A DNA stretch of 46,738 nucleotides from IMG/VR virus record IMGVR_UViG_3300025160_000003, one strand, 5' to 3'. This document shows positions 856 to 35,349 of this stretch, piece by piece. The notes beneath the pieces were generated by a model. It was not told the DNA's origin, did no database searches, and saw only the letters and a list, made by a program, of their open reading frames with translations. The translations under genes and the position numbers were made by a program. Each line of letters opens with the position of its first letter. Position 1 is the stretch's first letter. The stretch is from a virus.

Positions 856-1658
856 GATTTATTACCAAAATTACCTTCATCAATAACCTTCTTAGCTTCA
901 TCAAAAGTTATATTATTCATATCAGCATAAGATTGAATTAACTTATCTTTAGGAGATAGCTTAATTTCTTCTTCTTCTTTTTTAGGAAAATTCTGTGCTT
1001 CAATTAGTAATCTACATTCTGTCTCAGTTTTACCTGTCATCTCCATCATAGTTTTAATAAGTTTTTCGGTCTTATCTAACTTTGATTTAACTTTTGGAGT
1101 TATCTTAGGTTTATTAATAATTGCTGGAGCATAAAACTCATCGGCTTGTTTAATCTTATTGCGCGTTTCCTCACGAACCTTATCTCCAAACGCGCGAAGT
1201 TCATTACTTATTACAATAACATCTACATTAGCATCATGAACTATAGAACTATGGTCAAATATTACTTGTTGAAAATGCGTATATCTGTCTGCTAAAAATG
1301 AAAAATACTTTTGATGCTTTTCTTCATCATTTAATTTATCGTCAGCAAATATAATATCTTTTACTTTATGATTAGATATTGTTTTAGCATTAAATACATC
1401 GCCTGAGTAGCGAATTGACGCATCTTCTTCAGAACGAACTAAACGAAGAAAAACGTCAGCATCTTGGATTAATTCATTTTTTCCTACTTCACTATCAGTA
1501 ATACAAGAATTACATTTTAAAACTTTATCATAGACTTGAACTTCACCTATTTTACCACAAATTGAACATCGCGCGGCATGAGTATGAGATAAAAAATCGA
1601 ACGCGCAAATCGAGCATAATGCAGCGTTATCAATTGATTTAGTAAATGGATGATTCAT
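852..1658 (-). CDS. hypothetical protein with N-terminal Cys-rich zinc ribbon and two C-terminal UBA/TS-N-like helical repeats
   Basis: 268 aa. CSIC..x..CSICG..CNSC near the N-terminus. Repeated LIKTMMEMTGKTETECRLLIEAQNF / LIQSYADMNNITFDEAKKVIDEGNF. 4-nt overlap with the downstream gene. Confidence 0.6.
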   Translation of the reverse strand: MNHPFTKSIDNAALCSICAFDFLSHTHAARCSICGKIGEVQVYDKVLKCNSCITDSEVGKNELIQDADVFLRLVRSEEDASIRYSGDVFNAKTISNHKVKDIIFADDKLNDEEKHQKYFSFLADRYTHFQQVIFDHSSIVHDANVDVIVISNELRAFGDKVREETRNKIKQADEFYAPAIINKPKITPKVKSKLDKTEKLIKTMMEMTGKTETECRLLIEAQNFPKKEEEEIKLSPKDKLIQSYADMNNITFDEAKKVIDEGNFGNKS

Positions 1659-1660
1659 AA

Positions 1661-1759
1661 TTAAGCCAACAAAACAATTATTGATATTTCAATTATTAAC
1701 AATACAAATAAAACTCCGGCTGCAATATTTTCAATAGTTTTATTAGGTTTATTATTCAT
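1661..1759 (-). CDS. tiny single-pass membrane protein (32 aa)
   Basis: Hand translation MNNKPNKTIENIAAGVLFVLLIIEISIIVLLA. Tightly packed between co-oriented genes. Confidence 0.35.
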   Translation of the reverse strand: MNNKPNKTIENIAAGVLFVLLIIEISIIVLLA

Positions 1760-1761
1760 GA

Positions 1762-1977
1762 TTAATTAATCTCAGTTACTTCTATGATAATTAATCTAAA
1801 ATCTGTATTCCAATCTCTATTTGTAACTTCAATCATTGATTGTGCAATTTTTTCAGAAGTCCAAAAACGCGCATAATTCAAAAAATCTGTAGTAAATGGT
1901 CTAGTTTCATTATCAAATCGTTCTAAATACATTTCAGCACTATTCTTTAGACAATACCACTTTGCAGTAGTTTTCAT
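1762..1977 (-). CDS. hypothetical protein (71 aa)
   Basis: ORF track 1762..2058 trimmed to the internal Met (MKTTAKWY), which is preceded by the RBS aaggattgag. Confidence 0.6.
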   Translation of the reverse strand: MKTTAKWYCLKNSAEMYLERFDNETRPFTTDFLNYARFWTSEKIAQSMIEVTNRDWNTDFRLIIIEVTEIN

Positions 1978-1984
1978 AATTATC

Positions 1985-2107
1985 TCAATCCTTATGCTTA
2001 AAACAAATTCTAATAAACTTATCTTTTTTACCTTTTTCACGTTCAATAATACAACCACAATCTAACTTAATTATCGAACGATTTTTAGTAACGAATTTTA
2101 TTGTCAT
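1985..2107 (-). CDS. possible first micro-gene of the leftward arm (40 aa, Cys-containing)
   Basis: Hand translation MTIKFVTKNRSIIKLDCGCIIEREKGKKDKFIRICFKHKD. Weak RBS. Confidence 0.3.
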   Translation of the reverse strand: MTIKFVTKNRSIIKLDCGCIIEREKGKKDKFIRICFKHKD

Positions 2108-2258
2108 AAATCACGTTACTTTCAGCAAAAATTAGTAAAATTGCCCGGTCAGTCTCATTGCAATTCTGGTGCCAATCTAGGCTCGTTCTGGCTCGTTTCC
2201 CGACGGCTGAACCGTCCTAAGTTCAATCGAATCAAGCACTTAGCTAGACCTCTGCTCA
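2108..2258 (-). other. about 150-nt GC-rich untranslated leader of the leftward transcript
   Basis: Lies between the predicted start site of the divergent promoter at 2266..2294 and the first ATG. No ORF. Local hairpins include GACGG-ttcag-CCGTC and CTAAGT-n15-ACTTAG in the minus sense. Confidence 0.4.
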
Positions 2259-2265
2259 CCTACCT

Positions 2266-2294
2266 ATCATAGCATACCCTATCCAGCCTGTCAA
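2266..2294 (-). promoter_or_regulatory. sigma70-type promoter firing leftward (TTGACA-17-TATGAT)
   Basis: Reverse complement reads cacTTGACAggctggatagggtatgcTATGATagg. Near-twin of the rightward promoter at 2409..2437. Confidence 0.7.
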
Positions 2295-2343
2295 GTGCGG
2301 CTCGATTGACACACTACTAATCCGTGTTAGTTTAGAGTAAGTA

Positions 2344-2392
2344 AAAATATATAAAAAAAAAAGAACACTACCTCTCATCTGGTATGTAGTGT
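2344..2392 (-). terminator. intrinsic terminator on the minus strand, upstream of the leftward promoter
   Basis: Minus sense: ACACTAC-n14-GTAGTGT followed by tcTTTTTTTTTTatatattttt. Confidence 0.65.
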
Positions 2393-2399
2393 GGTCGGA

Positions 2400-2437
2400 T
2401 TGACACACTTGACAGGCGATAGAGGGCATGATAGAAT
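2400..2437 (+). promoter_or_regulatory. sigma70-type promoter firing rightward (TTGACA-17-TAGAAT) with a second TTGACA 9 nt upstream
   Basis: gaTTGACAcacTTGACAggcgatagagggcatgaTAGAATgg. -35 at 2409..2414, -10 at 2432..2437. Confidence 0.7.
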
Positions 2438-2581
2438 GGATAATAGCCCGATTCGGTCGTTCGGTGGTCGTAAGTCTAGTCAGGTCAGTTACTTACGGTG
2501 AACTGAAACGGGCCAAAACGTCGAGGAGTTCAATGGTAGTTCGGTGGCATCGTCGAGAAATGCCTAGTAACGTTTTGGTAA

Positions 2582-2610
2582 TGTCTAAAGTTTTCTCAAT
2601 ACTGTGTCAA
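2582..2610 (-). promoter_or_regulatory. possible antisense promoter (TTGACA-17-TAGACA)
   Basis: Minus sense: aggTTGACAcagtattgagaaaacttTAGACAt. The -10 lacks the final T. It would be terminated by the 2344..2392 terminator. Confidence 0.3.
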
Positions 2611-2620
2611 CCTAGACACA

Positions 2621-2649
2621 TTGACAAGCGATTCGAGATGTGTTATGAT
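2621..2649 (+). promoter_or_regulatory. sigma70-type promoter (TTGACA-17-TATGAT)
   Basis: cacaTTGACAagcgattcgagatgtgtTATGATggg. Confidence 0.7.
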
Positions 2650-2826
2650 GGGTTTGTTAGGTTGATTGGAGTTAGCTACCTTTCAGTCTGACTCAGGGTT
2701 ATATAGGGACGACAAAAGATTGGATTCTAGGAAGGTCCAATTTACAAAACGTCCGGCATCCTAGTGCAAATCGTAGGACATAAACCCTACGGCCCTGATA
2801 TACTTTTTATCTAGGATGTAATTTTT

Positions 2827-2862
2827 ACATGTTGACAAGTTCCGAGATTCATGTCAACATGT
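2827..2862. promoter_or_regulatory. perfect 11-bp inverted repeat placing two TTGACA boxes face to face (operator-like palindrome or weak promoter)
   Basis: acatgTTGACA-agttccgagattca-TGTCAAcatgt, about 50 nt upstream of the first early gene. Confidence 0.45.
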
Positions 2863-2909
2863 AATTGTTCGTTGTTAGTAGTTCATTGACAAATAAAGAG
2901 GTAAATCAA

Positions 2910-3272
2910 ATGGCAGATGGTTCTATCCCTAAGTCTGGTAAGACGACTATTTCGACTGTTGCGGGAGTTACGCTTGCATCATTGGGAAAGCCTGATGTAA
3001 ACGTGGAGTATAACTGGTCTGAGTTCGCTACTGTAGAGGAAATGGAAGCGGCCGGCGAAACTCCGAGTAAGGTTGACATTCTTGCTTATGTAAACTCAAT
3101 TCGTGAGCGTAATGCGTTGTCGAGCGCTCGTGCAAGTAAGATTAGTGAGTTTACTGAGGAAGTTCGTAACTCGCCTGAGTTCAAGCGTTCCGAGTTTATT
3201 AAGGCTGCTGTGGCCTTTGGTATGACTCAGGAGCAGGCAGAACAGTTGGCTTCGAGTAAGCTTACGCAGTAA
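2910..3272 (+). CDS. early protein (120 aa), unknown function
   Basis: ORF track 2865..3272 trimmed to the ATG at 2910, preceded by aaagaggtaaatcaa. GC-richer codon usage than the arms. Its C-terminal helix module is paralogous to the product of 3863..4036. Confidence 0.7.
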   Translation: MADGSIPKSGKTTISTVAGVTLASLGKPDVNVEYNWSEFATVEEMEAAGETPSKVDILAYVNSIRERNALSSARASKISEFTEEVRNSPEFKRSEFIKAAVAFGMTQEQAEQLASSKLTQ

Positions 3273-3289
3273 TTAATCGTAAACTTATA

Positions 3290-3331
3290 CAGGATAGCTA
3301 TTGACAAACGTAGGTTGATATGCTATCCTGT
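3290..3331 (+). promoter_or_regulatory. promoter (TTGACA-17-TATCCT) embedded in a 10-bp perfect inverted repeat
   Basis: ACAGGATAGCtaTTGACAaacgtaggttgatatGCTATCCTGT. -35 at 3301..3306, -10 at 3324..3329. Confidence 0.5.
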
Positions 3332-3336
3332 AATTA

Positions 3337-3526
3337 TTAGATGCCTTAAGCAAGCATCTAACGGTCCTAATGAGTTTTGCACGTTATCGCGTTAGGACAA
3401 AAATAAAAATGCGCGGATTAGTAAGCTATCGCTAGTGTAGCCGAACATCCTAATTAATAGCTAGCTAGCATACAAAGCCTAGTAAGGGTTAGGTAGCTCC
3501 TAATACCTGCTAGGCTTTTGTATTTG
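3337..3526 (+). ncRNA. candidate about 190-nt non-coding RNA, or structured 3-prime UTR of the early mRNA
   Basis: Bounded by the 3301..3329 promoter and the 3474..3526 terminator. No credible ORF. Successive hairpins (ttagatgc-n9-gcatctaa; gtcctaa-n21-ttaggac). CCTAAT/ATTAGG words recur. Confidence 0.4.
3474..3526 (+). terminator. intrinsic terminator (plus strand)
   Basis: AAAGCCTAG-n27-CTAGGCTTT, with a nested ttagg/cctaa stem, followed by tgtattt. Confidence 0.6.
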
Positions 3527-3535
3527 ATTAGACAA

Positions 3536-3587
3536 AACAATAGCCGATTAGGAATGTAAGTTAACCTAATCGGCTATTGTTGTTTTT
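3536..3587. terminator. bidirectional intrinsic terminator between convergent early units
   Basis: 17-bp perfect stem AACAATAGCCGATTAGG-n12-CCTAATCGGCTATTGTT, flanked by an A-rich 5-prime side and gttttt on the 3-prime side. Confidence 0.75.
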
Positions 3588-3705
3588 AGTTAACTCGGCA
3601 GAGTTCAAGCATTCGATAATTGCCAGCGTGGTAATAGAAAACAAACGCCAGCAAATCACTTTCCCTATTAATGCGATACGTAACTCCATTGATTGTGATA
3701 TTCAC
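3586..3705 (-). CDS. possible micro-gene (39 aa, GTG start)
   Basis: Hand translation VNITINGVTYRINRESDLLAFVFYYHAGNYRMLELCRVN. ggag lies 8 nt upstream. Start overlaps the upstream stop. Confidence 0.3.
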   Translation of the reverse strand: MNITINGVTYRINRESDLLAFVFYYHAGNYRMLELCRVN

Positions 3706-3866
3706 TTGTTTACTCCATTCTTTTCGTTAGTCACGTCAGCAAACCTAACGCGCCATCTGTAATTAGTTATAAAGTAAGTTCGCTTACCTACTTCAATAAA
3801 TACAGACAGACCGCGATAAGCCTTCCAATAAACATGAATCGTTAACGCGAAGTGTAGTCTTGTCAT
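3702..3866 (-). CDS. micro-gene (54 aa)
   Basis: Hand translation MTRLHFALTIHVYWKAYRGLSVFIEVGKRTYFITNYRWRVRFADVTNEKNGVNK. RBS ggaggtaaagagcaa. ATGA overlap with the upstream gene. Confidence 0.4.
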   Translation of the reverse strand: MTRLHFALTIHVYWKAYRGLSVFIEVGKRTYFITNYRWRVRFADVTNEKNGVNK

Positions 3867-4036
3867 TTGCTCTTTACCTCCTTTGTAAACTTCAGTATCT
3901 TAGCTGGTCCTTCGCTTACCTTAGCCTTTTCATTTGCTAGCTGTTCGGCTAGTTCAGGTTCTATTCCGAAGTCTATAGCCGCTTCTATAAACTCCTGACG
4001 GCGCGTTTTGAATTGCGCGATTCGGCCTAGTCTCAT
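3863..4036 (-). CDS. micro-gene (57 aa) sharing a helical module with the 2910..3272 product
   Basis: Hand translation MRLGRIAQFKTRRQEFIEAAIDFGIEPELAEQLANEKAKVSEGPAKILKFTKEVKSK. RBS gaaggtaactaa. Confidence 0.5.
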   Translation of the reverse strand: MRLGRIAQFKTRRQEFIEAAIDFGIEPELAEQLANEKAKVSEGPAKILKFTKEVKSK

Positions 4037-4073
4037 TTAGTTACCTTCTGCCATTAGCTAGATACTAACTAGA

Positions 4074-4109
4074 ATGCCCTAGAATCGCTTACAAGTAACT
4101 CTAGGGCAT
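4074..4109 (-). promoter_or_regulatory. intercistronic hairpin (10-bp stem, 16-nt loop); possible RNA processing or attenuation site
   Basis: atgccctaga-n16-tctagggcat between the stop of 4126..4332 and the start at 4036. No U-tract follows. Confidence 0.35.
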
Positions 4110-4125
4110 ATTAGAAGGTATTAAG

Positions 4126-4332
4126 CTACATCTTAGCAATCAACCTTGCATACATCCTTCTGACTACTTGCTTACTTACTGCTAACCGTAATTCGCGCGG
4201 CGCTGGAATCGCTCGCGCTACTAGAATCATACCATTAGCAATATCAAATGTTTGTCGATTCACTTTCACGGCTCCACAATAAGGGCATGAAAAGTGATTG
4301 TGATGGGCTAGACAAATTGGGCATTGAGTCAT
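4126..4332 (-). CDS. zinc-ribbon micro-protein (68 aa)
   Basis: ORF track. CPIC-x11-CPYC. RBS gaggataactaacc. Confidence 0.6.
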   Translation of the reverse strand: MTQCPICLAHHNHFSCPYCGAVKVNRQTFDIANGMILVARAIPAPRELRLAVSKQVVRRMYARLIAKM

Positions 4333-4334
4333 GG

Positions 4335-4493
4335 TTAGTTATCCTCTAGTTTACGTAGTATTTCGTTTACTTCGGCAAGGTCAACCTTATCATATTCACT
4401 ATCTGCCTTGTAAACTCTATCAGTTAGTATTCGCCGTTCGTCTTTCAATAGGCGAATAACCGTATTTAGTTCTCGTGGTGTTAACTTCTGCAT
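4335..4493 (-). CDS. micro-gene (52 aa, helical)
   Basis: Hand translation MQKLTPRELNTVIRLLKDERRILTDRVYKADSEYDKVDLAEVNEILRKLEDN. RBS gaggtaactaaccc. Confidence 0.5.
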   Translation of the reverse strand: MQKLTPRELNTVIRLLKDERRILTDRVYKADSEYDKVDLAEVNEILRKLEDN

Positions 4494-4548
4494 GGGTTAG
4501 TTACCTCATTAATTGGTTAGTAGCACGTTAGGCCGGTCTGAAATGTTG

Positions 4549-4740
4549 CTAGTTGTAATATCCCAATGGGATATCTATTCGGCGCGTAGTTCCGTCTTTT
4601 CTTACTACCTGAATGCGGATTATTTCTTTTCCTTCTCTGTCCGCACAAGTATCGATAGCGACTGCAAACGGCTGTCTGTTCATGTAGTCGCATAACGATT
4701 CTAATTCTTCTTTGATATGTTCGGCTGTTCTGTAGGTCAT
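4549..4740 (-). CDS. micro-gene (63 aa; alternative start at 4758)
   Basis: ORF track 4549..4758. The internal ATG at 4740 follows aggaaactaacc, the spacer shared by neighbouring island genes. Confidence 0.6.
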   Translation of the reverse strand: MTYRTAEHIKEELESLCDYMNRQPFAVAIDTCADREGKEIIRIQVVRKDGTTRRIDIPLGYYN

Positions 4741-5041
4741 GGTTAGTTTCCTATTCATGACCGGCCTAATCTGCCACTAATCAATTATTCAGTTATCAAA
4801 GACCTATCGGCCGCGTTCCGTCTAACTTGTCAACGATTCAATTCGCACTAACTAACAATGCAATTGTTGTGCCATAAATAAATCTTGATAATACTGTCGG
4901 TTCGCTTGAGGCTAATTCAAATAGTACGTAATTCCCCTGACTTTAGTCTACTAATCTGTAATTCTAATAACAATCTTGAAAATTGAATAACTAATTCAAT
5001 TAAATGAATAATCATATGTCATTTAATTGACATGTTAGACA

Positions 5042-5078
5042 AACCAATAAATTGAATATTGAGTCCAATTTATTGGTT
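5042..5078 (-). terminator. 13-bp perfect hairpin after the 5087..5227 gene (terminator-like)
   Basis: AACCAATAAATTG-n11-CAATTTATTGGTT. Same layout as the 3536..3587 element: preceded by GTTAACTAAAAC and followed by TTGTCTAA in the minus sense. Confidence 0.5.
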
Positions 5079-5086
5079 GTGCGGTT

Positions 5087-5227
5087 TTAGTTAACGCGCC
5101 TTGCTGGGCGGTGAAACAGATTGTATGCTTTACCTAATACGCGGGCGTATCTCCGAAGTTTACGAAGGTCGGAACAGTCAATAATGGAAATAATCTTTCC
5201 ATCTCGATATGCGATTCTGCGATACAT
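5087..5227 (-). CDS. micro-gene (46 aa, basic)
   Basis: Hand translation MYRRIAYRDGKIISIIDCSDLRKLRRYARVLGKAYNLFHRPARRVN. RBS gaggtaaacc. Confidence 0.45.
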   Translation of the reverse strand: MYRRIAYRDGKIISIIDCSDLRKLRRYARVLGKAYNLFHRPARRVN

Positions 5228-5746
5228 GGTTTACCTCACGAACAATAACAATGCAGTTCTCATGCCAATATTCATGTGCGCGATTCTGGCCTGATTCAGT
5301 CGTGCACAGTTCAGCATGTCATCTGTTAGGTAGATATTTGTCTACTATTCATAACTCTACGAAAACCCTCGTACTTAATTTTGATTACTCAAAGTTATAT
5401 CTTTGACTTATCAAATATGTATGCCCCTATCACCATAATTCAAGCTACAATCAGACGAAAAAGGGAGAAGGTTGTTATTAAGCTCTATGGATACAATTAT
5501 CCTAATGATTAATATAATTAATTTAGGGTCCCATATTTAGGTACCATCAAATAAATTTTTACAAAAAATAAAAATTATTCCTAAATTTTAATAAAGTCAA
5601 AATAAAATAATAAATATTCATGGGATTTCAGACTTGCCCTAGAATCAACGAAGGTGGGCCGGAGGATATTGGGAGTCATCTCAGCTCCGAAGTTGGCCTA
5701 TATTCAATTGTGGCTTGAAATAAGACCATCCTAGCGCGTGTCCGAA

Positions 5747-5787
5747 TTGACATACCATTTGACATGGCCCGTTACTTGTGGTATAAA
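5747..5787 (+). promoter_or_regulatory. sigma70-type promoter for the rightward structural arm (TTGACA-17-TATAAA) with a second TTGACA 12 nt upstream
   Basis: aaTTGACAtaccatTTGACAtggcccgttacttgtggTATAAAg. First gene starts at 5843. Confidence 0.7.
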
Positions 5788-5842
5788 GACGGTGGCATAC
5801 TAGATATAGACTGAAATCTGGAACAAGTTATAGGATTATCAA

Positions 5843-6388
5843 ATGCCTTTAGGTATTTTATCTGATGAAGAATTTGAGAAAGAACTGATTAAAGGTAATA
5901 ATGTAGATGAAAATAAATCAGTAGTTAAAGAACTACCTACAAGTGGAAGAAATGAAGGTGATATTAATAAGCCTGAAACTATACGTCAGATAATTGCTGA
6001 ATGTAAAATTAATGGTGATAGTGATAATGACATAAAAGAATCATTTAAGACTTCTACATCAAGTATTAACGCCTATTCAAATGGCAAGAATGGAACTAAT
6101 GATAAAACTAATACAAAACTTGCGCGCTTTGTTAAGAACGCGCGAAATGTAATTACTCGTAAAGCGTCGCGCACGTTAATTAAAACATTAGATCATATCA
6201 CAGAAGATCGAATATCTGAATTGCGCGCCAATGAAATGTCAGTTCTTGCTAAAAATATGAGTTCTATTATTGCTGACATGGAAGAAAAGAATCGAAATGT
6301 TAATAATGGAATTCAAGCCAATTTTGTTGTTTATGCCCCACCACAAAAATCCATAGAGAAATACGAAGTTGTTGAGGTAGATAATTAA
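5843..6388 (+). CDS. hypothetical protein (181 aa), first gene of the rightward arm
   Basis: ORF track. Asn/Lys-rich. No motif recognised. A small-terminase role is possible only by position. Confidence 0.6.
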   Translation: MPLGILSDEEFEKELIKGNNVDENKSVVKELPTSGRNEGDINKPETIRQIIAECKINGDSDNDIKESFKTSTSSINAYSNGKNGTNDKTNTKLARFVKNARNVITRKASRTLIKTLDHITEDRISELRANEMSVLAKNMSSIIADMEEKNRNVNNGIQANFVVYAPPQKSIEKYEVVEVDN

Positions 6389-6406
6389 CTTGATAAGTAG
6401 ATAATT

Positions 6407-6733
6407 ATGGTAAACCATTTTACAGTTACAATTGCTGCTTCTGCTACACCACAAAGATTATCTACTGGATTAAGTGCAGTAGTTGGTACCCCTAAGGCTG
6501 GTGATTTATTAAGGTATTTATCATTGCAAGCCGGTGGTGGTAATGCTGGAATAATTTATGTTGGTGGTAATCAACGTACAGTAAGTTCGACTGATTATGG
6601 ATTCCGTATAGAAATTCCTCCTGCAACTATTCCTGGTGTTCCTATAGAAATTTCATTAGGTGTTGTATCATTAGATGATTTCTTTGTTGTTGGAACTATT
6701 AATGATACAATAAAGATACTTGCAATAACTTAG
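6407..6733 (+). CDS. small Thr/Gly/Val-rich beta-type protein (108 aa)
   Basis: ORF track. Composition resembles the products of 15932..16273 and 25147..25476. Confidence 0.55.
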   Translation: MVNHFTVTIAASATPQRLSTGLSAVVGTPKAGDLLRYLSLQAGGGNAGIIYVGGNQRTVSSTDYGFRIEIPPATIPGVPIEISLGVVSLDDFFVVGTINDTIKILAIT

Positions 6734-9952: not shown

Positions 9953-11581
9953 ATGGAACCAATCATTGAAATTAACGAATCAGCAGAATTCAATGAATGG
10001 AAACCTACACCTAAACAAGCTAAGTTTCTAGAATTACCCTATGATATATTAGAGGGATTTTATGCGGGTGCTGTTAATGCAGGTAAAACTCACGTATTGC
10101 TTGCATATATTTTAGTACATAAGTTTTATTTACGAAGCAATTTTAAGGGGTTATTTTTAAGACGTACATTTCCTGAACTAAAGAATGAAGTAATACCACG
10201 CAGCAGATTATTTTTCGAACATCCAACTATTGGTGGAACTTATAATAAACAAGATAAATGTTGGACGTTTCCATCTGGTGCGCTTTTCTTTTTTGGTCAT
10301 TGTGAAGATGAAGAAGATGTACATAACTACGATTCAATGCAGCCTAATTACGTTGCATTTGATGAGTTAACATCATTTACTGAATGGCAATATTTATATA
10401 TAACATTACAACGAGTTCGTGCTGCGACTGATAGTGGATTACCTGCAATAGTTCGTTCTGCGAGTAATCCTGGTAATATCGGACATAATTGGGTTCGCGC
10501 ACGTTTTATTGACCCATGTCCAGAAGGATTAAAGGTATTAACTAATAAGGCTGGAGTTAAAAGAATATTTATTCCAGCAACGGTTAAAGATAATCCTTAT
10601 GTTAGTCAGCAGTATTTAAATCAGTTAGAGTCTTTACCTGAAGCTGAAAAGCAAGCTAAACTTTATGGTAATTGGTCAGCATATGAAGGTTCAGTATTTG
10701 ATGAATTTAGGGATAAAACTTATCCTGATGAACCTGAAAATGCATTGCATGTAATTGAACCATTTGATATTCCATTATTTTGGCCTAAGATTTATTCTAT
10801 AGATTGGGGATACGCGCCGCCAGCAATAAATTATATAGCATGTGGCGCGGTCACTCCAGATGAAAGAATAGTTCTTTATAAAGAAAAAGGTTGGCAGAAA
10901 ACTAAAATTGCTGATTGGACAGCAGAAGTTAAAGAATGGGCTGATGTAGAAAATCCACGTATTATTAAACTTTGTAAATCAGCTTCACAAAAACGCGGAC
11001 AAGAACATACAGTTCAATCTGAAGTTGAAAAAGGATTAGGTAGACCAGTTGAATTAACTAATAATGATCCTGGTAGTAGAATTGCTGGTAAGATGTTAAT
11101 GCATGAATACTTTAGGTGGAAGCCTAAGTATATTCCATCATTAACGTCGCGCATTTATAATGACGAACAAGCAATGTGGTTGTTAAGAAATAGAGGAGTA
11201 GAAGAATATCAATCTTATTTAGATTCGTTTAGACCTATTAAAGAAGAAATTAATATACCAAAATTCTTAACATTTAACATTAATAAGTTATTTATAAATG
11301 CTATTAAATCTTGCGTTTATGATAAAGTTCATACTCAAGACGTAGCAGAATTTCCTGGTGATGATCCATATGATTCAGGAAGATATTTAATAGATGCTGC
11401 TGATCGTTATTTTAATGAAGCAGTAAATGAAAAGAAGAAGTTAGATGATAGAAATAAATTAGATGAAATGTTACGTAAAACTGGTGATATGACAGCGTTT
11501 TATAGAGAGAGTAAGAAATTAGATAATACAGTAAGTATGAAACCAATACGTAGATTTCATCATGGTAGAAGATATACCTAA
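9953..11581 (+). CDS. terL: terminase large subunit
   Basis: 542 aa. Walker A AGAVNAGKTH, Walker B YVAFDELT, C-terminal nuclease-type region. Followed by the portal-sized gene. Confidence 0.88.
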   Translation: MEPIIEINESAEFNEWKPTPKQAKFLELPYDILEGFYAGAVNAGKTHVLLAYILVHKFYLRSNFKGLFLRRTFPELKNEVIPRSRLFFEHPTIGGTYNKQDKCWTFPSGALFFFGHCEDEEDVHNYDSMQPNYVAFDELTSFTEWQYLYITLQRVRAATDSGLPAIVRSASNPGNIGHNWVRARFIDPCPEGLKVLTNKAGVKRIFIPATVKDNPYVSQQYLNQLESLPEAEKQAKLYGNWSAYEGSVFDEFRDKTYPDEPENALHVIEPFDIPLFWPKIYSIDWGYAPPAINYIACGAVTPDERIVLYKEKGWQKTKIADWTAEVKEWADVENPRIIKLCKSASQKRGQEHTVQSEVEKGLGRPVELTNNDPGSRIAGKMLMHEYFRWKPKYIPSLTSRIYNDEQAMWLLRNRGVEEYQSYLDSFRPIKEEINIPKFLTFNINKLFINAIKSCVYDKVHTQDVAEFPGDDPYDSGRYLIDAADRYFNEAVNEKKKLDDRNKLDEMLRKTGDMTAFYRESKKLDNTVSMKPIRRFHHGRRYT

Positions 11582-15931: not shown

Positions 15932-16273
15932 ATGGCTATTACTAGTGAACGCATTGTAACTATAAAACTTTCAGGTGACTATGATGCTGCTATAGAATAT
16001 CAAGCAGATAACGCCGCATCACCGGGCGATATAGATATAGTTACTTTAGCTGCTGGTAATAATGCTATATCAGTTCCATCAAGTGCAACTGGTGTTACAA
16101 TTAGACCCCCAAGTGCTAATACTGAATTGATTACACTTAAAGGTGTTAATGGTGATACAGGAGTTGCATTGCATTTAACAGACGCTACATCAATTGGATT
16201 AGGAACAGCAGTAACTAGTTTTGTACTGAATGTTACTTTACAATTGATTGGCGTGCGATTAATTTGGAGTTAG
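15932..16273 (+). CDS. small beta-type head-module protein (113 aa)
   Basis: ORF track. Between the scaffold-like and capsid-like genes. Confidence 0.5.
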   Translation: MAITSERIVTIKLSGDYDAAIEYQADNAASPGDIDIVTLAAGNNAISVPSSATGVTIRPPSANTELITLKGVNGDTGVALHLTDATSIGLGTAVTSFVLNVTLQLIGVRLIWS

Positions 16274-16276
16274 TTA

Positions 16277-17530
16277 ATGTCATTTGATAATGCGTCAGTA
16301 ATTGCTACGGAACTTGAGAAAGTTACAACCAAGTTACCGGAAGCATATGAATCTGACGATAAGTTCTTTTCCAACATTAAGAAAGCAGATGTTGAGAAGG
16401 TTTCTTATCGACAGTTGCGCGCTCCTATAAATATTAGACCAGGTGGAAAATTCCAGTATTTTGGACCAAATGGTTCTGATTTAGGACGTGGTGGTGGACC
16501 TACATACGAAAAGGCAGTATTACAGCCTGTGTTCATGAGTCAGAACATTGAGTATACTAAACTTGCTCAGTGGGGAACTGATAGTGATAGAAAGGCTATA
16601 GTTAATGCCGTTCGTAAACTTACAGCAGGTGCATTAGTTGAATTACGTCGTCAGATTGATTCTCAGATGATGGGTTCAGGTAATGGTGTTGTAGGTACAA
16701 TTAGTGCGGTTGATGCAACTGTTGTAGGTACAGATCAGTATACGCTTACAGCAGAATTCGGAGCACGTTTAGTACGTTTTGGTCAGACGATTCAGGTGTT
16801 TGATAGTACTTTAGCAACTAATCGTGGTAATGCTGAAATTACGTTCTGGGATGTTGCAAATGGCATTATTAAAGTTAATGCTAATATTGCTGGTGCAACT
16901 GCTACAGACGTATTAGTTGTTCAGGGTATTACTTCTCCTGCATCTATGCCTGCATTGTATGGTGTGCCATATCATCATTCTAATGCAAGTACTGGAACGT
17001 GGTTAGGATTTAACAGAGTTAGCACACCAGAAATACGTTCTAATGGTATTAATGGTAATAGCTCTGCTTTATCTTGGCCGCTTCCAAGACGCGCAATTAA
17101 TACCATTGGTAATCGTGTTGGTATTGATAAGAATTTTAAAGCGCGCGCTTGGATGCATCCGTGTCAGCAGCAGCAATATGAACAGATGGGCTTTAATGTT
17201 TCCATCATACAGAAACAGCCTAGACAAGAAGGTTTAAATCTGTATTTTGGTGATGATATGCAGATGGCCGGCGCTCCAGTTATGCCGCATTTTAATTGGA
17301 GTAAGGAAAGAATTGACTTCGTTGTTGATTCTGTTTGGCATCGTGCAGAAATATTGCCTATCGGTTTTTATACTACAGATGGAAGAAATATCTTCGAATT
17401 ACGCGGACCATCTGGTGGTGTAATGACTGCTGATATTTTCTACATGGTTGTGGGTATGCAGACATATGTTGATAATCCAGCATCAACGTCTTATATCTAC
17501 GATTTATCAATTCCTGCTGGTTACAATTAA
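16277..17530 (+). CDS. major capsid protein (417 aa)
   Basis: Position after the scaffold, typical size, locally higher GC, strong RBS on neighbouring genes. Fold not verifiable by eye. Confidence 0.62.
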   Translation: MSFDNASVIATELEKVTTKLPEAYESDDKFFSNIKKADVEKVSYRQLRAPINIRPGGKFQYFGPNGSDLGRGGGPTYEKAVLQPVFMSQNIEYTKLAQWGTDSDRKAIVNAVRKLTAGALVELRRQIDSQMMGSGNGVVGTISAVDATVVGTDQYTLTAEFGARLVRFGQTIQVFDSTLATNRGNAEITFWDVANGIIKVNANIAGATATDVLVVQGITSPASMPALYGVPYHHSNASTGTWLGFNRVSTPEIRSNGINGNSSALSWPLPRRAINTIGNRVGIDKNFKARAWMHPCQQQQYEQMGFNVSIIQKQPRQEGLNLYFGDDMQMAGAPVMPHFNWSKERIDFVVDSVWHRAEILPIGFYTTDGRNIFELRGPSGGVMTADIFYMVVGMQTYVDNPASTSYIYDLSIPAGYN

Positions 17531-25476: not shown

Positions 25477-26147
25477 TGGTAAAAACTATTCCGGGAAAAT
25501 CCGGACCTGTTTCTATTTCATTATTAACATCTGGAACTGCTGCTACATATACGGTACCTAATGGTATTTTTAGATTAAAAGTTAGATTAGTTGGCGGTGG
25601 TGGCGGTGGCGGTGGTGCTGATAGCGCAGTAGGAAATGTAGGTGTAGGTGGTGGTGGTTATAGTGGTGGATATGCGGAAAAAATATATGTTACAACTCCA
25701 GGCGCAACATTTACATATACAATTGGTGCAGGTGGCGCAGGCGGATTAGCAGGAAATAATAGTGGTACAACTGGTGGTAATACTTTATTTGATGAAGCTG
25801 GTTCTGTTGTAACTGCCCCTGGCGGTCCCGGTGGTGGAAGTATGGCTGCTGGTACTACTATGAACGCTACAGGTAAACCAGCACGTGTACAAGCAACTGG
25901 TGGTGATTTAAATTTATTTACTGAAGGTGCAACAAGAGGTTGGAGATTAAGTTCTACACAATGGATTGGTAGTTGTGGTGCATCTGGATTATTAGGTAAT
26001 GGTGGTGGTGATGGTTTTAATGCTGATGGTGTAGCAGCAGAAGGTTATGGTGCAGGAGGTGGTGGTGGACAAAGAGTAAATAGTGCAACAGATCAAGCAG
26101 GCGGCGCAGGAACTATTGGATTAATTATTGTTGAAGAATATAATTAA
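25476..26147 (+). CDS. glycine-rich fibre-like protein (223 aa)
   Basis: VRLVGGGGGGGGADS...GGGGYSGG...GAGGGGG. Resembles glycine-rich-domain phage tail proteins. Confidence 0.45.
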   Translation: MVKTIPGKSGPVSISLLTSGTAATYTVPNGIFRLKVRLVGGGGGGGGADSAVGNVGVGGGGYSGGYAEKIYVTTPGATFTYTIGAGGAGGLAGNNSGTTGGNTLFDEAGSVVTAPGGPGGGSMAAGTTMNATGKPARVQATGGDLNLFTEGATRGWRLSSTQWIGSCGASGLLGNGGGDGFNADGVAAEGYGAGGGGGQRVNSATDQAGGAGTIGLIIVEEYN

Positions 26148-26849: not shown

Positions 26850-28181
26850 ATGGCAAAAGGTGATAGACAGCGCGCCACTCAAGACCAAGCTACTTTAGAT
26901 AAAAGACTTGGACTTGATACATCTAATTATCAAGATAGTCTAACACGAAATCTATCATCTTATGATGATATAATGAATTCGTATAAAAACTATTTTGGTG
27001 GTGATAGGTCTGGTAGTAATTACTTAACTTCTGCCGGCGAAGGTTATGGTAAATTTGCTGCCGATGGTGGTATAAATGTAGAAAATATTAGAGCGCGCGC
27101 TATTAGTCCAATTCGCGCGGTCTATGCTAACGCGCAACGTAATGTAGATAGACAAAGAACATTACAAGGTGGTTATAGTCCTAATTATACAGCTGCTATG
27201 ACCAAAATGGCACGCGAGCAAGGTGCTAATGTAGCTGATGCTAATACTAATGTTGAAGCAGCAATAGCAGAATTAATTTCAAGAAATAAACTTGCTGGCT
27301 TATCTGGTATGACTGGTGTTGGTGAATCTATGTCAAACCAAGATTTAAATGCTTTATCTGGTATGACTAGTTTATATGGAACTTCACCAGGATTAACTAG
27401 AACATTAGGAGATCAAATATTACAAGCAGAAGCAATACGACGTGGTATTTATAACATGCCTAGTACTGGTGAGCAAGTTATGAATAATGTAGGACGTGGT
27501 ATTGGTTATGCATCTCAAGGCGCGCAAGCTGCTAATGCATTTGGTAAATTTGGTGGTGCTGCTGGTGCAGGAGCAGGTGCAAGTGCAGGTTTAGTTTCTG
27601 GTACTGGTGCAGCAGGTTCATTAGTTCCGGGTGCTACAACATTAGGTGGTATTAGTGGAACTGGTGCAGGTGCAACATCTATAGGTGCAGGATTTAGTGC
27701 TGGTGTTCCAATTGCAGATATAGCAGCTACAGGTGCAGGTACTAGTATTGGTACTGGTGTAGGTACAGCAGCAGGTACAGGAACTAGTGCAGGTATGATG
27801 GCAGGTTTAGGTACAAGTGCAGGTGCATCATTAGCAATGGGCGGAATAATGGGAGGTGTAGCTGCTGCAATAATTATAGCTGCTGATGCCTATGCAAGAA
27901 ATAGAAATGATACAAGAATAGGTAGAGAGAAATTTGCTAAACAATTAGGATTACCCAATATTGATGCTTTATATAACCAATTAGGATCTATGGGTCCAGA
28001 AGGTGAAGCATTAAGAATAGAAGGTATGCGGATGGGTAAAAAGGATTATACTAATAACTTTAACTGGTTCCAGAAAGTTGCTAAGTTATTACAACGTCCT
28101 GACTTAATTAGTAATATAAATAATCCTGGTACTGGACCACAAATATTTACACCGCAGGATAGAAAGACTGTTGGGTTATAA
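26850..28181 (+). CDS. internal virion / ejection-type protein (443 aa) with a Gly/Ala/Thr/Ser-rich region of about 110 aa
   Basis: Position in a three-gene block at the end of the structural arm. GGAAGAGAGASAG...GGIMGGVAAAIIIAADA. Confidence 0.4.
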   Translation: MAKGDRQRATQDQATLDKRLGLDTSNYQDSLTRNLSSYDDIMNSYKNYFGGDRSGSNYLTSAGEGYGKFAADGGINVENIRARAISPIRAVYANAQRNVDRQRTLQGGYSPNYTAAMTKMAREQGANVADANTNVEAAIAELISRNKLAGLSGMTGVGESMSNQDLNALSGMTSLYGTSPGLTRTLGDQILQAEAIRRGIYNMPSTGEQVMNNVGRGIGYASQGAQAANAFGKFGGAAGAGAGASAGLVSGTGAAGSLVPGATTLGGISGTGAGATSIGAGFSAGVPIADIAATGAGTSIGTGVGTAAGTGTSAGMMAGLGTSAGASLAMGGIMGGVAAAIIIAADAYARNRNDTRIGREKFAKQLGLPNIDALYNQLGSMGPEGEALRIEGMRMGKKDYTNNFNWFQKVAKLLQRPDLISNINNPGTGPQIFTPQDRKTVGL

Positions 28182-32331: not shown

Positions 32332-32773
32332 TAGTAATTCCACATCTATCACAAATATATTGTTTATTTGTTATAGACCATGTATAAGATTTTACAAATA
32401 AATGATTACATATTGATTGATTTCTATCACTATTACTAAATATATTACTAGGTGTTATAATTGGATTAGTTTTATTTCTCTGTCTATAACTTTTCCATAA
32501 AACTACATATGTAGCTAAATCTAAAAAGCTATCATCTATTGATTCATTATTCGGTACTTCATCTTTATTAAGTAATGTAGCTAATCGCGCGAGTTTAGTT
32601 CCAATTAGAATTACAAAACTCTTATCAATCGGATCATTAAACCATTCAGCTAAATTTCCACTACGTTCAAAATTCTCAAATGGATTATCATTAGATGCAT
32701 AATCAGCATTTTTCTTCTCATGAATTAATTTCATATCTTCAAGCGTTTTGAGAAATTCTTGAATTACGGACAT
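32324..32773 (-). CDS. MazG/DUF1599-like all-alpha NTP-pyrophosphohydrolase-fold protein with a C-terminal zinc ribbon (149 aa)
   Basis: KKNADYASNDNPFENFERS...TKLARLATLL...ESIDDSFLDLATYVVL follows the K-x-x-DY...NF...K-x-x-RL...E-S-x-x-D...Y pattern. C-terminal CNH..x..CDRCG. Confidence 0.45.
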   Translation of the reverse strand: MSVIQEFLKTLEDMKLIHEKKNADYASNDNPFENFERSGNLAEWFNDPIDKSFVILIGTKLARLATLLNKDEVPNNESIDDSFLDLATYVVLWKSYRQRNKTNPIITPSNIFSNSDRNQSICNHLFVKSYTWSITNKQYICDRCGITII

Positions 32774-32927
32774 ATTTTCTCCTAATTGAAACCTTCATTC
32801 TATGCTTAAAACATAATACAAATTTAGGTGAAGGATTAAGACATTGGGTACATAATCCTTTTCTACGTTGTGAATAATAATAGTTACGTTCTTGTCTACG
32901 TTTTAATATCGGATTAGAATTAGCCAT
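32739..32927 (-). CDS. small basic protein (62 aa)
   Basis: ORF track. Arg/Lys-rich, with CTQC..x..C. Confidence 0.45.
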   Translation of the reverse strand: MANSNPILKRRQERNYYYSQRRKGLCTQCLNPSPKFVLCFKHRMKVSIRRKYVRNSRISQNA

Positions 32928-32938
32928 AAAATTTGATA

Positions 32939-33012
32939 TGGGCCAAATAGGATTTGAACCTATAACCTAATGATTATGAGTCATTTGCTCTGACCATTTG
33001 AGCTATTGGCCC
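32939..33012 (-). tRNA. tRNA with anticodon CAT (Met, or Ile2 if lysidinylated)
   Basis: Hand fold of the reverse complement: GGGCCAA-TA-GCTC-AAATGGTCA-GAGC-A-AATGA-CTCATAA-TCATT-AGGTT-ATAGG-TTCAAAT-CCTAT-TTGGCCC-A. All four stems pair. CCA is not encoded. Confidence 0.85.
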
Positions 33013-33020
33013 ATTAATAA

Positions 33021-33224
33021 TCAATCCACTTTTATTTTAGTTTCAGTTCTTTTTACAATTTGAACTAAATGAAAATCAGGATTTTTTAATAGATTATCTA
33101 TAAAAGGCTGAGCATACTCTATCACACTAAATTTCTTTTCGATTATAGAATATGAATCAGTATAATAAACTATTATTTGTTCCTCTTTAGGAACAAGATG
33201 ATTCATCGAATTAATCCAGTTCAT
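33021..33224 (-). CDS. hypothetical protein (67 aa)
   Basis: ORF track 33021..33233 trimmed to the first ATG (MNWINSMNHL). Confidence 0.5.
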   Translation of the reverse strand: MNWINSMNHLVPKEEQIIVYYTDSYSIIEKKFSVIEYAQPFIDNLLKNPDFHLVQIVKRTETKIKVD

Positions 33225-33297
33225 ATAAATCAATCCACAATAATCTTAATTACATCAGTTGAATTTGTTTTCATTGAATTTTATCCTTAAATTTAAA

Positions 33298-33374
33298 TGG
33301 TGCCCCAGGTCAGATTCGAACTGACACTTTAATGATTTTAAGTCATTTTTCTCTGCCTATTGGAATACTGGGGC
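33298..33374 (-). tRNA. tRNA with anticodon TAA (would read UUA Leu) but a 5-nt variable loop; CCA encoded
   Basis: Hand fold: GCCCCAG-TA-(weak D arm TTCC/AATAGGCA/GAGA)-AATGA-CTTAAAA-TCATT-AAAGT-GTCAG-TTCGAAT-CTGAC-CTGGGGC-A-CCA. Confidence 0.7.
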
Positions 33375-33387
33375 GCTTAAATTGAAA

Positions 33388-33570
33388 TTATTTATACCCA
33401 AATTTTCCCATTGCTATAATAAAATTATCTACAACTTCAGATTCTAAACAAATTTCATTAGTAGCACTAACTCCATTATGGGTAAAAATCCATAATCTAT
33501 CAATATCATCTAGTCCAATATAAACTGCATCACCCAAATATTCTACTAATTTATATTTACCTAAGTTCAT
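33388..33570 (-). CDS. hypothetical protein (60 aa)
   Basis: ORF track. ATGA overlap with the upstream micro-gene. Confidence 0.5.
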   Translation of the reverse strand: MNLGKYKLVEYLGDAVYIGLDDIDRLWIFTHNGVSATNEICLESEVVDNFIIAMGKFGYK

Positions 33571-33734
33571 AATGAAATTATCTCCGTCTTATGATCTTCA
33601 ATCCAAACGATTAATTGCTTAAGACAACTAATACAAATGTTAGCATTACTAATTTGAACTACTGGTAAAGATAATTCAAAACAACTAGCACAATAATATC
33701 TACCAATAGTTTCTATTCTGATTGATTTTATCAT
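33567..33734 (-). CDS. zinc-ribbon micro-protein (55 aa)
   Basis: Hand translation MIKSIRIETIGRYYCASCFELSLPVVQISNANICISCLKQLIVWIEDHKTEIISL. Confidence 0.45.
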   Translation of the reverse strand: MIKSIRIETIGRYYCASCFELSLPVVQISNANICISCLKQLIVWIEDHKTEIISL

Positions 33735-33736
33735 AT

Positions 33737-33952
33737 TTATTCCTCAACCAAACTAACATTGCGCGCTCTTGGGCCTTTAGCAGAATTGCCTTCTTCAAAA
33801 TTAACTCTAATAGTTTTAAGTAATTTCATATCGCGTTTTAATTCAGTCCAGTTACCTAAATAATCATCAACATGAAAGAAATAATCCTTATTGTTATAAT
33901 TGATAAATCCAAAATGTTTACCTTCAGCAATACGAATGACTTGACCAATCAT
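33737..33952 (-). CDS. cold-shock-domain protein (71 aa)
   Basis: RNP1-like GKHFGFI and RNP2-like YFFHV. Confidence 0.7.
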   Translation of the reverse strand: MIGQVIRIAEGKHFGFINYNNKDYFFHVDDYLGNWTELKRDMKLLKTIRVNFEEGNSAKGPRARNVSLVEE

Positions 33953-33956
33953 AATT

Positions 33957-35144: not shown

Positions 35145-35347
35145 TTTTCTTCAACAAACTTAATCATTCTCATCATTACTTCTGATGCTAATGGATTTTC
35201 ATTAACATTTATAAATGAGTGAGAGAATTCTCGTACTAATGATCGGACCTCATCTGAATTCAACATGAAGTATTTATTTCCAGCACAATCTATTAGCTTT
35301 TCTGTATAACCTTCTGGTGGTTCAATATTAGTTATCTTTTTATTCAT
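35141..35347 (-). CDS. hypothetical protein (68 aa)
   Basis: ORF track. 4-nt overlap with the upstream gene. Confidence 0.5.
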   Translation of the reverse strand: MNKKITNIEPPEGYTEKLIDCAGNKYFMLNSDEVRSLVREFSHSFINVNENPLASEVMMRMIKFVEEK

Positions 35348-35349
35348 AA

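Follow-up and report, generated by a model that had tools for sequence, protein, structure and literature searches.

The class I region of phage T7 is served by tandem host promoters (A1-A3) placed before gene 0.3 and contains RNase III sites and the early terminator TE. The host-takeover module of Bacillus phage SPO1 lies in the terminal redundancy and combines some two dozen small genes with a dozen early promoters of high strength, and iteron origins are represented by the lambda ori, the SPP1 oriL and the origins of plasmids. Here we compare with these systems a 3.7-kb segment, positions 2108-5842 and hereafter the island, of the viral record IMGVR_UViG_3300025160_000003 from IMG/VR, whose full stretch of 46,738 nucleotides (nt) we call the window. 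Its sequence makes it probable that the island is the early-expression and control module of this phage.

As in T7, three tandem strong host promoters (P1-P3) are predicted to drive a first gene, g120, whose product is small (about 120 amino acids, aa) and acidic; small early genes, long hairpins between genes and a strong terminator that ends the unit are further common features. The g120 protein resembles no solved protein in sequence or fold. The island differs from the T7 region in being divergent, so as to feed both arms of the genome, and in carrying non-coding units and sigma-54-type elements and, unlike T7, the window revealed no recognisable phage RNA polymerase gene among its genes. 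We know of no T7 counterpart to the split in composition between island and arms. With SPO1 the island shares a cluster of micro-genes equipped with consensus promoters, strong ribosome-binding sites and terminators, but it has eight genes, is about 60 % non-coding and gives no PHROG or Pfam match to known early proteins. The window and its relatives resemble iteron origins in having two or three direct repeats, which vary by lineage, beside an AT-rich tract at the minimum of the cumulative GC skew; the window itself has two repeats only. A phage early region under host promoters is ordinary; what is unusual here is the compositional compartment, the candidate sigma-54-type promoters and the apparently swappable RNA slot.

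Sigma-70 promoters between two divergent gene arms

The right arm of the genome consists of plus-strand genes (5843-32331) and the left arm of minus-strand genes (32324-46682 and, over the junction, 1-2107); the two arms diverge from the island and converge near 32.3 kb. A preliminary description of this DNA had both arms running outward from the segment, which is what we found (minus genes left of 2107, plus genes right of 5843). It had also placed the recognisable sigma-70-type promoters of the genome in this segment, and indeed no sigma-70 promoter of such quality was found in the arms. Fifteen of the 25 TTGACA hexamers lie within the island, which makes up 8 % of the genome; in L023, one of the related loci that we refer to by L numbers, all TTGACA boxes (7/7) are in the island. 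Five promoters have the form TTGACA-17-TGnTAxxxT (2294 on the minus strand; 2409, 2621, 3301 and 5759 on the plus strand) and a weaker one, P3, starts at 2832 (Table 1). The island promoters have all the parts of an extended -10 sigma-70 promoter (TTGACA, a 17-bp spacer, TGn and TAnnnT) as well as a TRTG -16 motif of the kind typical of Gram-positive hosts. Across L018-L024 and L030 they are kept in position and sequence while their flanks diverge, and at the place of P3 a strong promoter is found in L019, L020 and L023.

We also observed GTGTC/GACAC palindromes ahead of the strong promoters (2600-2620, 2388-2409 and 2294-2315), which are kept in L018, L020 and L023. They have the form TGTGTC-N6-GACACA before P2 and AGTGYGG..CACACT before P1 and the minus-strand promoter P(-)2294, and they may be operators for early shut-off.

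In the programme that we propose, host sigma-70 polymerase would, after injection, recognise the six extended -10 promoters, which are close to consensus and confined to the island. P(-)2294 would fire towards the replication arm and the plus-strand promoter P(+)5759 towards the structural arm, the tandem promoters P1, P2 and P3 would drive the acidic 120-aa protein, and P2 and P4 would each also head a non-coding unit closed by a hairpin and a U run (T2 and P4 RNA). The micro-proteins, which belong to no known family and have strong ribosome-binding sites, are presumed to be early or host-directed.

Base composition and codon usage of the island

The GC fraction is 0.400 in the island and 0.330 elsewhere, and the island is the GC-richest of all 3.7-kb segments of the genome (mean 0.338, standard deviation 0.023). 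The GC elevation announced by the preliminary description is thus real, at 40.0 % and in a profile that is not flat, but the 47-55 % quoted there describe local peaks only; the 100-nt peaks stand at 0.51 (2201-2300) and 0.46 (3901-4000). Arm stretches at 25501-26000, 27501-28000 and 16001-17500, which hold the capsid gene and glycine-rich structural genes, were also seen at 0.40-0.44 GC, so that a GC-rich 500-nt bin alone does not mark the island, whereas the contrast in GC at third codon positions (GC3) does.

GC3 is 0.40 in island genes and 0.16 in arm genes. Gene by gene it is 0.30-0.45 in 8/8 island genes, against a mean of 0.168 in the arms (standard deviation 0.045, maximum 0.29, n=51), and every island gene lies above every arm gene (8 vs 51 genes). 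GC at codon positions 1 and 2 is alike in the two sets (0.50 and 0.39 in the island, 0.47 and 0.38 in the arms). The island is 40.5 % coding as compared with about 96 % in the arms, and its spacers have a GC of 0.33-0.42 against 0.29 in arm intergenic DNA. CpG has an observed/expected ratio of 1.12 in the island but is depleted in the arms (0.76, with TG/CA at 1.11), as would be expected if the arms, but not the island, were exposed to C-to-T mutation or to the avoidance of certain sites. The arms use TTA for 66 % of their leucine codons, the island for 19 %. It has been proposed that phage tRNAs serve late genes (e.g. PMC12482277), and the TTA excess of the arms together with the phage's own tRNA-Leu(UAA) fits that idea.

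The GC excess extends over the entire module, silent sites and spacers alike, and is not an RNA signature. Because the island's protein genes are equally GC-rich at their silent sites, it is no mark of RNA structure, and its earlier use as a hint of structured RNA does not survive this result; moreover, most of the DNA free of open reading frames (ORFs), namely 2444-2620 and 5228-5842, folds like shuffled sequence.

The same split is found in relatives. GC3 is 0.19-0.22 in the arms of L019 and 0.33-0.46 in its island genes, and in L023 the corresponding values are 0.11-0.20 and 0.39-0.47. The arm proteins of L019 are 62-70 % identical to those of the window and its island proteins 41-56 %; for L019 and L023 together the ranges are about 58-70 % and 41-56 %. 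Since the split is common to these two relatives, which have diverged enough for silent sites to equilibrate, recent transfer is unlikely, and we infer that the split is old and that a lasting constraint on the module is the better reading. The split itself is observed, its cause interpreted: the arms would have drifted to 16 % GC3 and come to lean on TTA codons read by the phage tRNA-Leu(UAA), and the island's composition would reflect early genes having to work with unmodified host machinery.

Three candidate sigma-54 promoters

On the minus strand a three-copy direct repeat of the island, D1, reads as -24/-12 elements of the sigma-54 type (s1, s2 and s3, Table 1). Neither these elements nor the iteron block described below figured in the preliminary account of the control region, which to that extent was incomplete. 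All three elements are in the island, where they read in the minus direction and stand before the replication arm (s1), the micro-gene operon (s2) and g46 (s3); they are co-oriented with these units, whose start codons follow the element start at 67, 134 and 40 nt, respectively. TGGCAY-N5-YTGCW occurs three times in the genome where 0.15 occurrences are expected, and 0/100 shuffles reached three. Two of the three sites score 11/11 bases against the sigma-54 consensus TGGCAC-N5-TTGCW, and s1 is exact to TGGCAC-N5-TTGCA. The 223 kb of other loci that we fetched contain a single TGGCAY-N5-YTGCW, which is orthologous to s3 and lies in L026 (TGGCATGTGTATTGCT).

A further motif is found upstream of the elements. 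It lies 82 nt upstream of s2 (GATTAGTAGACTAA, 4943-4956, reading ATTAGTAGACTAA) and has a counterpart before s3 (Table 1), and in L026 an identical motif core stands 71 nt before the element while the DNA between the two has diverged. What survives between the window and L026 is the TGGCATG..TGC core and the motif GTTATGAATAGTAGAC(A/T)AA, at offsets (83 vs 71 nt) that differ by about one helical turn. Overall, three of the four sites are preceded by GAWTAGTAGACWAA, which is not a dyad, at a distance of 71-83 nt. In L023 and L024 the s3 position, equally far from the first micro-gene, is taken by a sigma-70 extended -10 element, TGcTATGAT, which indicates that s3 sits where a promoter belongs. 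On balance we lean towards the view that the three elements are real sigma-54 promoters, and the s1-s3 units would then most likely be under the host's enhancer-dependent polymerase. No enhancer-binding protein, sigma factor or Sigma54_activat domain was recognised among the called genes of the phage.

The literature that we searched on phage sigma-54 promoters gave nothing direct; a precedent is phage YuA of Pseudomonas aeruginosa (Ceyssens et al. 2008, as cited in PMC5053324), whose dependence on host sigma-54 was reportedly shown genetically. The citing paper calls phage use of sigma-54 'rare' but 'not unprecedented' (PMC5053324). The same paper states that T7 Gp2 does not inhibit the sigma-54 holoenzyme (PMC5053324), from which one may speculate that a phage shutting off sigma-70 could keep transcribing via sigma-54. 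YuA resembles the window phage in that each seems to use a host enhancer-dependent sigma factor for part of its programme. The two phages are however unrelated, and the dependence is genetic for YuA and deduced from motifs for the window phage, whose elements, unlike the YuA case, stand beside sigma-70 promoters in an early module and are replaced by sigma-70 promoters in relatives.

Candidate non-coding RNAs and a variable RNA slot

The genome has 32 perfect hairpins whose stems measure 9 bp or more, and seven of them are in the island, some with stems of 11-17 bp, in agreement with the long perfect hairpins mentioned in the preliminary description. Two non-coding units are predicted. P4 RNA folds with -88.6 kcal/mol (z = -7.1) and has its own promoter and a hairpin/U-run terminator, as is characteristic of a small-RNA gene; a simple terminator scan missed its terminators because their loops exceed 8 nt. 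It contains no conserved ORF, shows no frame preference in tblastx and has no Rfam match. Between the window and L018, hairpin H1 differs by two compensatory pairs around an identical loop (CUUAAGCAA), and the stem of H2 is kept although its arms differ. Within the inverted repeat that encloses P4 one pair takes the forms AU, GC and UA, and a G-U pair could form in plus-strand RNA only, which identifies the repeat as a probable 3' hairpin of the g120 message; these comparisons, two compensatory pairs in H1 and one pair of three types in the promoter hairpin, extend over 2-3 sequences only. No complementarity above chance was found in a search of the phage genome for antisense targets of P4 RNA, and its DNA pattern gave three unrelated GC-rich chance matches in metagenome contigs and none in IMG/VR.

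The other unit, T2, folds with z = -3.66 and ends in a U run. Its counterparts in L018, L019, L020 and L023 are closed by a stem between the conserved 5' end (UUGUUAG) and the 3' end of the same RNA, in which three pairs covary. For this closing stem, the ends of which we chose by hand on minimum-energy folds, pairing amounts to 95 % of cells in the relatives, as compared with 18-52 % and no covarying pairs in slid controls.

Three other candidates were rejected. T1 (2444-2620) is not a structured RNA by our measures (z about -0.5; RNAalifold finds only the P2 palindrome), 5228-5842 folds like shuffled sequence, and hidden conserved micro-ORFs in the ORF-free DNA are not indicated by tblastx, whose scores are alike in all frames. 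No Rfam family was found in the island at the gathering threshold, nor anything credible in 1900-6000 at E <= 5. The earlier picture of a hub of RNAs and micro-proteins is therefore retained for its micro-genes and for the units at 3336-3525 (z -7.1) and 2654-2830 (z -3.7), but an island consisting chiefly of RNA is not, and covariation among the relatives' islands is present to some extent in P4 RNA and the T2 counterparts; T1 has no consensus structure.

In L019, L020 and L023 the slot of P4 RNA holds a different RNA. Pistol ribozymes (RF02679, gathering score 34.5) were detected in L020 (1369-1430, 54.6 bits) and L023 (1726-1793, 43.0 bits), and we know of no biological role for this ribozyme. 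The RNA that bears it measures 330-470 nt from a consensus sigma-70 promoter to a terminator and lies just downstream of the g120 homologue, the place that P4 RNA occupies in the window. L019 has only its 5' domain, in which the stem GTTAGCTT / GGTAGTTT / GTGAGATT covaries across L019, L020 and L023. The window RNA is neither a pistol nor another Rfam ribozyme, and position, promoter type and terminator are all that the two have in common. These observations suggest that the slot after the first early gene may be a swappable cassette for structured RNA, filled by a pistol RNA in some lineages and by an unclassified 190-nt RNA in the window. Pistol ribozymes have been reported to be frequent near phage genes and prevalent in Firmicutes (PMC4604425).

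Micro-genes and their products

The eight island ORFs encode products of 39-120 aa and leave free the stretches that the preliminary description had listed as such. Each is preceded by a good Shine-Dalgarno sequence, in several cases GGTAACTAACC-ATG and, as that description stated, of the same type as in the arms; stop and start codons are coupled. Scans of all island proteins against Pfam and PHROG gave nothing above threshold, and g63 has no homologue outside the window phage. For g120 we found five homologue clusters with 51-74 % identity. Its model has a predicted local distance difference test (pLDDT) score of 88 and no fold match in PDB or BFVD, and the proposal that it is an Ocr-like DNA mimic is for that reason not supported. 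The C-terminal 26 residues of g120 recur in g57 on the opposite strand (EFIKAAVAFGMTQEQAEQLAS vs EFIEAAIDFGIEPELAEQLAN, 58 % identity, E = 3e-7), and L019 also has a copy of this motif on the minus strand.

The downstream arm of inverted repeat I1 covers the Shine-Dalgarno sequence of g52 and its upstream arm lies in the g63 leader; I1 might serve RNase III-type processing or the coupling of translation, or it might be a scar left where a cassette was inserted. An AT-rich tract of TTGAAT/ATTCAA repeats at 4880-5035 is conserved with L024 and L026.

A candidate replication origin

Block A is the most conserved non-coding element (Table 1), and since its tblastx scores are similar in all frames it is not coding. 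The direct repeats that follow it are conserved as lineage-specific forms, with three copies of GGTACCATATTT in L024 and three of AGAGTCTCAT in L031. GC falls to 19 % in 5501-5600, so that repeats stand next to an AT tract as in iteron-type origins, and the minimum of the cumulative GC skew lies across the island. The array at 5527-5620 is a candidate for a replication origin, or equally for a protein-binding site or a transcriptional switch of the right arm. HNH endonuclease genes were noticed between block A and the g181 homologue in L025 (751-1227) and L026 (724-1242); to judge from these two loci, the control region tolerates or attracts insertions of homing endonucleases.

The phage and its relatives

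The first 99 nt of the window recur at its end, and by this terminal overlap the assembly is circular and complete, with a genome of about 46.64 kb. The window phage is a tailed phage and probably a podovirus, as suggested by a weak match to the SU10 adaptor among its proteins. Helicase and primase genes are also encoded, and precomputed Pfam matches place a uracil-DNA-glycosylase domain (UDG) and DNA_pol_A on the same product, the family-A DNA polymerase. Two tRNAs, Met and Leu(UAA), were found at the Rfam gathering threshold. A second ORF-poor stretch was seen in the minus arm (40219-40569); its end is marked by a strong GC-rich hairpin (GGGTGCGCG...CGCGCACCC) with a T run behind it, and it might represent a further non-coding unit or else a major terminator.

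BLAST of GenBank phages with the island and 24 kb of the right arm gave no DNA-level match, and the best protein matches to cultured phages are only 24-26 % identical, so that neither host nor genus can be deduced from these matches, none of which exceeds 26 % identity. Nothing was found when GTDB genomes were scanned with the large terminase (TerL), in a scan with g268, or when a g120 alignment was searched in JGI metagenome contigs and IMG/VR. Upstream synteny with the window phage was not found in the IMG/VR TerL relatives L001-L009, which are uninformative for the island, and L013 is a distant relative that does not have the island. From the TTGACA/TATAAT promoters with a TRTG -16 motif, the strong Shine-Dalgarno sequences and the pistol ribozymes of relatives we infer, tentatively, that the host may be Firmicutes-like. 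Many Firmicutes possess sigma-54.

Table 1 Features of the island and landmarks of the window phage. Promoters, transcribed units and terminators are predictions.
Feature	Position	Strand	Remarks
Left (replication) arm leader, ~150 nt	2108-2259	minus	start placed by promoter 2294-2266; start codon of 40-aa gene at 2107; partly conserved in L019, L023
s1, sigma-54-type element	2159-2174	minus	TGGCACCAGAATTGCA; inside left-arm leader; absent at aligned place in L019
P(-)2294, sigma-70 promoter	2266-2294	minus	TTGACA-17-TGcTATGAT; 11/12 consensus + TG; predicted to drive left arm; kept in L019 (860-832), L023
A/T tract, UP-element-like	2342-2363		midway between two near-identical divergent promoters; flanked by AGTGYGG..GATTGACACACT repeats (D7, I2); kept in L018, L019, L020, L023
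P1, sigma-70 promoter	2409-2437	plus	TTGACA-17-TGaTAGAAT; kept in L019
T1, transcribed spacer/leader P1-P2	2444-2620	plus	no predicted structure
P2, sigma-70 promoter	2621-2649	plus	TTGACA-17-TGtTATGAT; preceded by palindrome (see text); kept in L018, L019, L020, L023
T2, candidate non-coding RNA, ~175 nt	2654-2830	plus	conserved 5' end UUGUUAGGUUG; ends UAAUUUUUAC just before P3
13-bp perfect hairpin containing P3	2825-2864	plus	TTGACA 2832-2837, weak -10 TGtCAACAT
g120, acidic 120-aa early protein	2910-3272	plus	isoelectric point 4.9; Shine-Dalgarno GAGGTAA; GC3 0.45; behind P1-P3
11-bp inverted repeat enclosing P4	3288-3332	plus	100 % paired in window, L018, L019
P4, sigma-70 promoter	3301-3329	plus	TTGACA-17-TGcTATCCT
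P4 RNA, candidate small RNA, ~190 nt	3336-3525	plus	H1 3337-3361; H2 3364-3398; terminator hairpin 3470-3522, then UUUUGUAUUU
17-bp perfect hairpin, T runs on both strands	3536-3581		predicted bidirectional terminator between plus units and minus operon; counterparts in L019, L020, L023
Operon of six micro-genes	3586-4740	minus	g63, g52, g68, g57, g54, g39
g39	3586-3705	minus	
g54	3702-3866	minus	
g57	3863-4036	minus	
Long imperfect hairpin, inverted repeat I3	4055-4128	minus	between g68 and g57; z -3.4 to -5.2
g68, zinc ribbon	4126-4332	minus	conserved in L019, L023
g52	4335-4493	minus	
42-nt inverted repeat I1	4497-4538 + 4759-4800	minus	arms bracket g63; 79 % complementary
g63	4549-4740	minus	
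s2, sigma-54-type element	4859-4874	minus	TGGCACAACAATTGCA; upstream of micro-gene operon
Two perfect hairpins, 12 + 13 bp	4996-5078		terminator-like; within AT-rich tract, after g46 stop codon
g46, basic 46-aa protein	5087-5227	minus	Shine-Dalgarno GAGGTAA; GC3 0.40
s3, sigma-54-type element	5252-5267	minus	TGGCATGAGAACTGCA; 24 nt before g46 start codon
s3 upstream motif	5337-5350	minus	GAATAGTAGACAAA; 83 nt before s3
Block A	5420-5495		CCCCTATCACCATAA..AGCTACAATCA..GAGAAGGTTGTT; in L023, L024, L025, L026, L030, L031
Two direct repeats	5527-5551		GGTCCCATATTT, GGTACCATCAAA; then AT-rich tract to 5620
P(+)5759, sigma-70 promoter, and right-arm leader	5759-5842	plus	promoter 5759-5787, TTGACA-17-TGgTATAAA; leader GGCATACTAGATAT; leader/promoter kept in L023, L024, L030
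Large terminase (TerL)	9953-11581		
Major head protein	16277-17530		
tRNA-Leu(UAA)	33298-33374		
Family-A DNA polymerase	35837-38347	minus	

Alternative explanations

Could the island be foreign DNA, acquired from a GC-richer donor by horizontal transfer and not yet ameliorated? We consider this unlikely, and the suggestion of a horizontally acquired module was accordingly not upheld for any recent event. The codon usage and composition of the island are sharply unlike those of the arms, CpG is not depleted in it and its dinucleotide distance to the rest of the genome is 92 (mean 57 ± 21), but an equal or larger distance is found for several arm segments and its ribosome-binding sites are of the arm type. 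Gene content varies among the relatives' modules (6 vs 3 micro-genes, and differing RNAs in one slot) and g63 has no relatives, yet g120 is present in all lineages with its GC3 kept at 0.36-0.45, and L019 and L023 show the GC3 split at protein identities that have given silent sites time to equilibrate. The compositional break is also the sole support for a chimera assembled from the DNA of two organisms, which the preliminary description had already thought unlikely and which we regard as refuted to near certainty, because independent assemblies of different samples agree across the island: over 1501-6500, JGI 3300002124, ENA ERZ27254846 and ENA ERZ28563660 each supply a contig (about 46.7 kb) with 100 % identity. 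In addition, about 27 protein-index blocks have 20-50-kb contigs carrying the 120-aa island protein, and the layout is common to the relatives. It is similarly unlikely that the GC excess arises from large structured RNAs encoded in the ORF-free DNA, the island being chiefly an RNA hub. Such a hub would explain why two non-coding units with their own promoter and terminator fold significantly and have covarying stems, why hairpins are enriched (7/32 in 8 % of the genome) and why relatives have a pistol ribozyme in the homologous slot; it does not explain a GC equally high at silent positions of protein genes, and the candidates cover only about 370 of the 2,222 non-coding bases, T1 and 5228-5842 fold like shuffled sequence with RNAalifold finding nothing in T1, and the island has no Rfam match at E <= 5. 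Finally, the island could be, or abut, an end of the virion DNA, that is, a terminal repeat or first-entering segment comparable to the T7 left end, the T5 first-step-transfer DNA or the SPO1 terminal redundancy, a collapsed repeat having produced the circular assembly. The island resembles such end regions in its strong host promoters, its small genes and its large share of non-coding DNA, one 23.5-kb contig of the same phage stops at 2250, and the L018 and L020 contigs begin at the A tract. Contig ends at a homopolymer tract are however ordinary assembly breaks, and most assemblies pass through the island unbroken, which leaves this explanation improbable. Because the breaks sit at a homopolymer tract, we also dropped the idea that contig ends of relatives at the island are genome termini.

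For the TGGCAC-N5-TTGCA elements the alternative is that they are operators or binding repeats (T(G/T)GCA, one helical turn apart), or else parking sites that block sigma-70 read-through. We doubt this explanation but give it appreciable weight. It would accord with the lack of a recognised activator in the phage, with the position of s1 within the leader transcribed from P(-)2294, with the lack of the elements in most relatives and with the overlap between s2 and a 6-bp palindrome, AACAAT-GCA-ATTGTT. Against it, the only bases common to all four sites, L026 included, are those that define sigma-54 elements; position and orientation are promoter-like, the place of s3 being that of a sigma-70 promoter in relatives; and a conserved motif stands upstream at an enhancer-like distance.

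Several points also weigh against our interpretation of the island as an early control module with sigma-54-type promoters. All functions were assigned in silico, and transcripts, starts and proteins are predictions. The phage has no recognisable activator or sigma factor. As s1 is absent from L019, and s2 and s3 from L023, L024, L025, L030 and L031, the elements are lineage-specific; s2 and s3, moreover, have flanks in common and might have arisen by duplication, which makes them less independent in the statistics. Codon adaptation alone leaves the GC-richer spacers unexplained. The window's T2 does not have the 3' partner found in the closing stem of its relatives, and covariation rests on 2-4 sequences only. 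The GC-skew minimum is confounded with gene orientation.

With these reservations, we retain the interpretation of 2108-5842 as an early-expression and control module. An extended version of it is put forward tentatively and with some doubt: the module might be a long-lived, separate compositional compartment, host-like and not CpG-depleted, in which the replication arm, the operon and g46 were rewired from sigma-70 to sigma-54 with an enhancer-like site, and in which the RNA slot is swappable.

Implications

Two silent-site compositions (GC3 0.40 vs 0.17) coexist in one 46-kb genome and are kept in diverged relatives, which argues for lasting selection on the early module. The GC3 contrast offers a sequence-only way to delimit the early regions of uncultured AT-rich phages. 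The module also gives pistol ribozymes a defined transcriptional context, an ORF-free unit between a consensus early promoter and a terminator, and its two unclassified phage RNAs and eight family-less micro-proteins are candidates for host takeover. Natural swaps between sigma-70 and sigma-54 elements at one position in related phages would make the question of recruitment testable in a field with few precedents (YuA). If the sigma-54 reading is true, the phage either borrows a host enhancer-binding protein, and with it a physiological signal of the host, or encodes a new sigma-54 activator among its micro-proteins.

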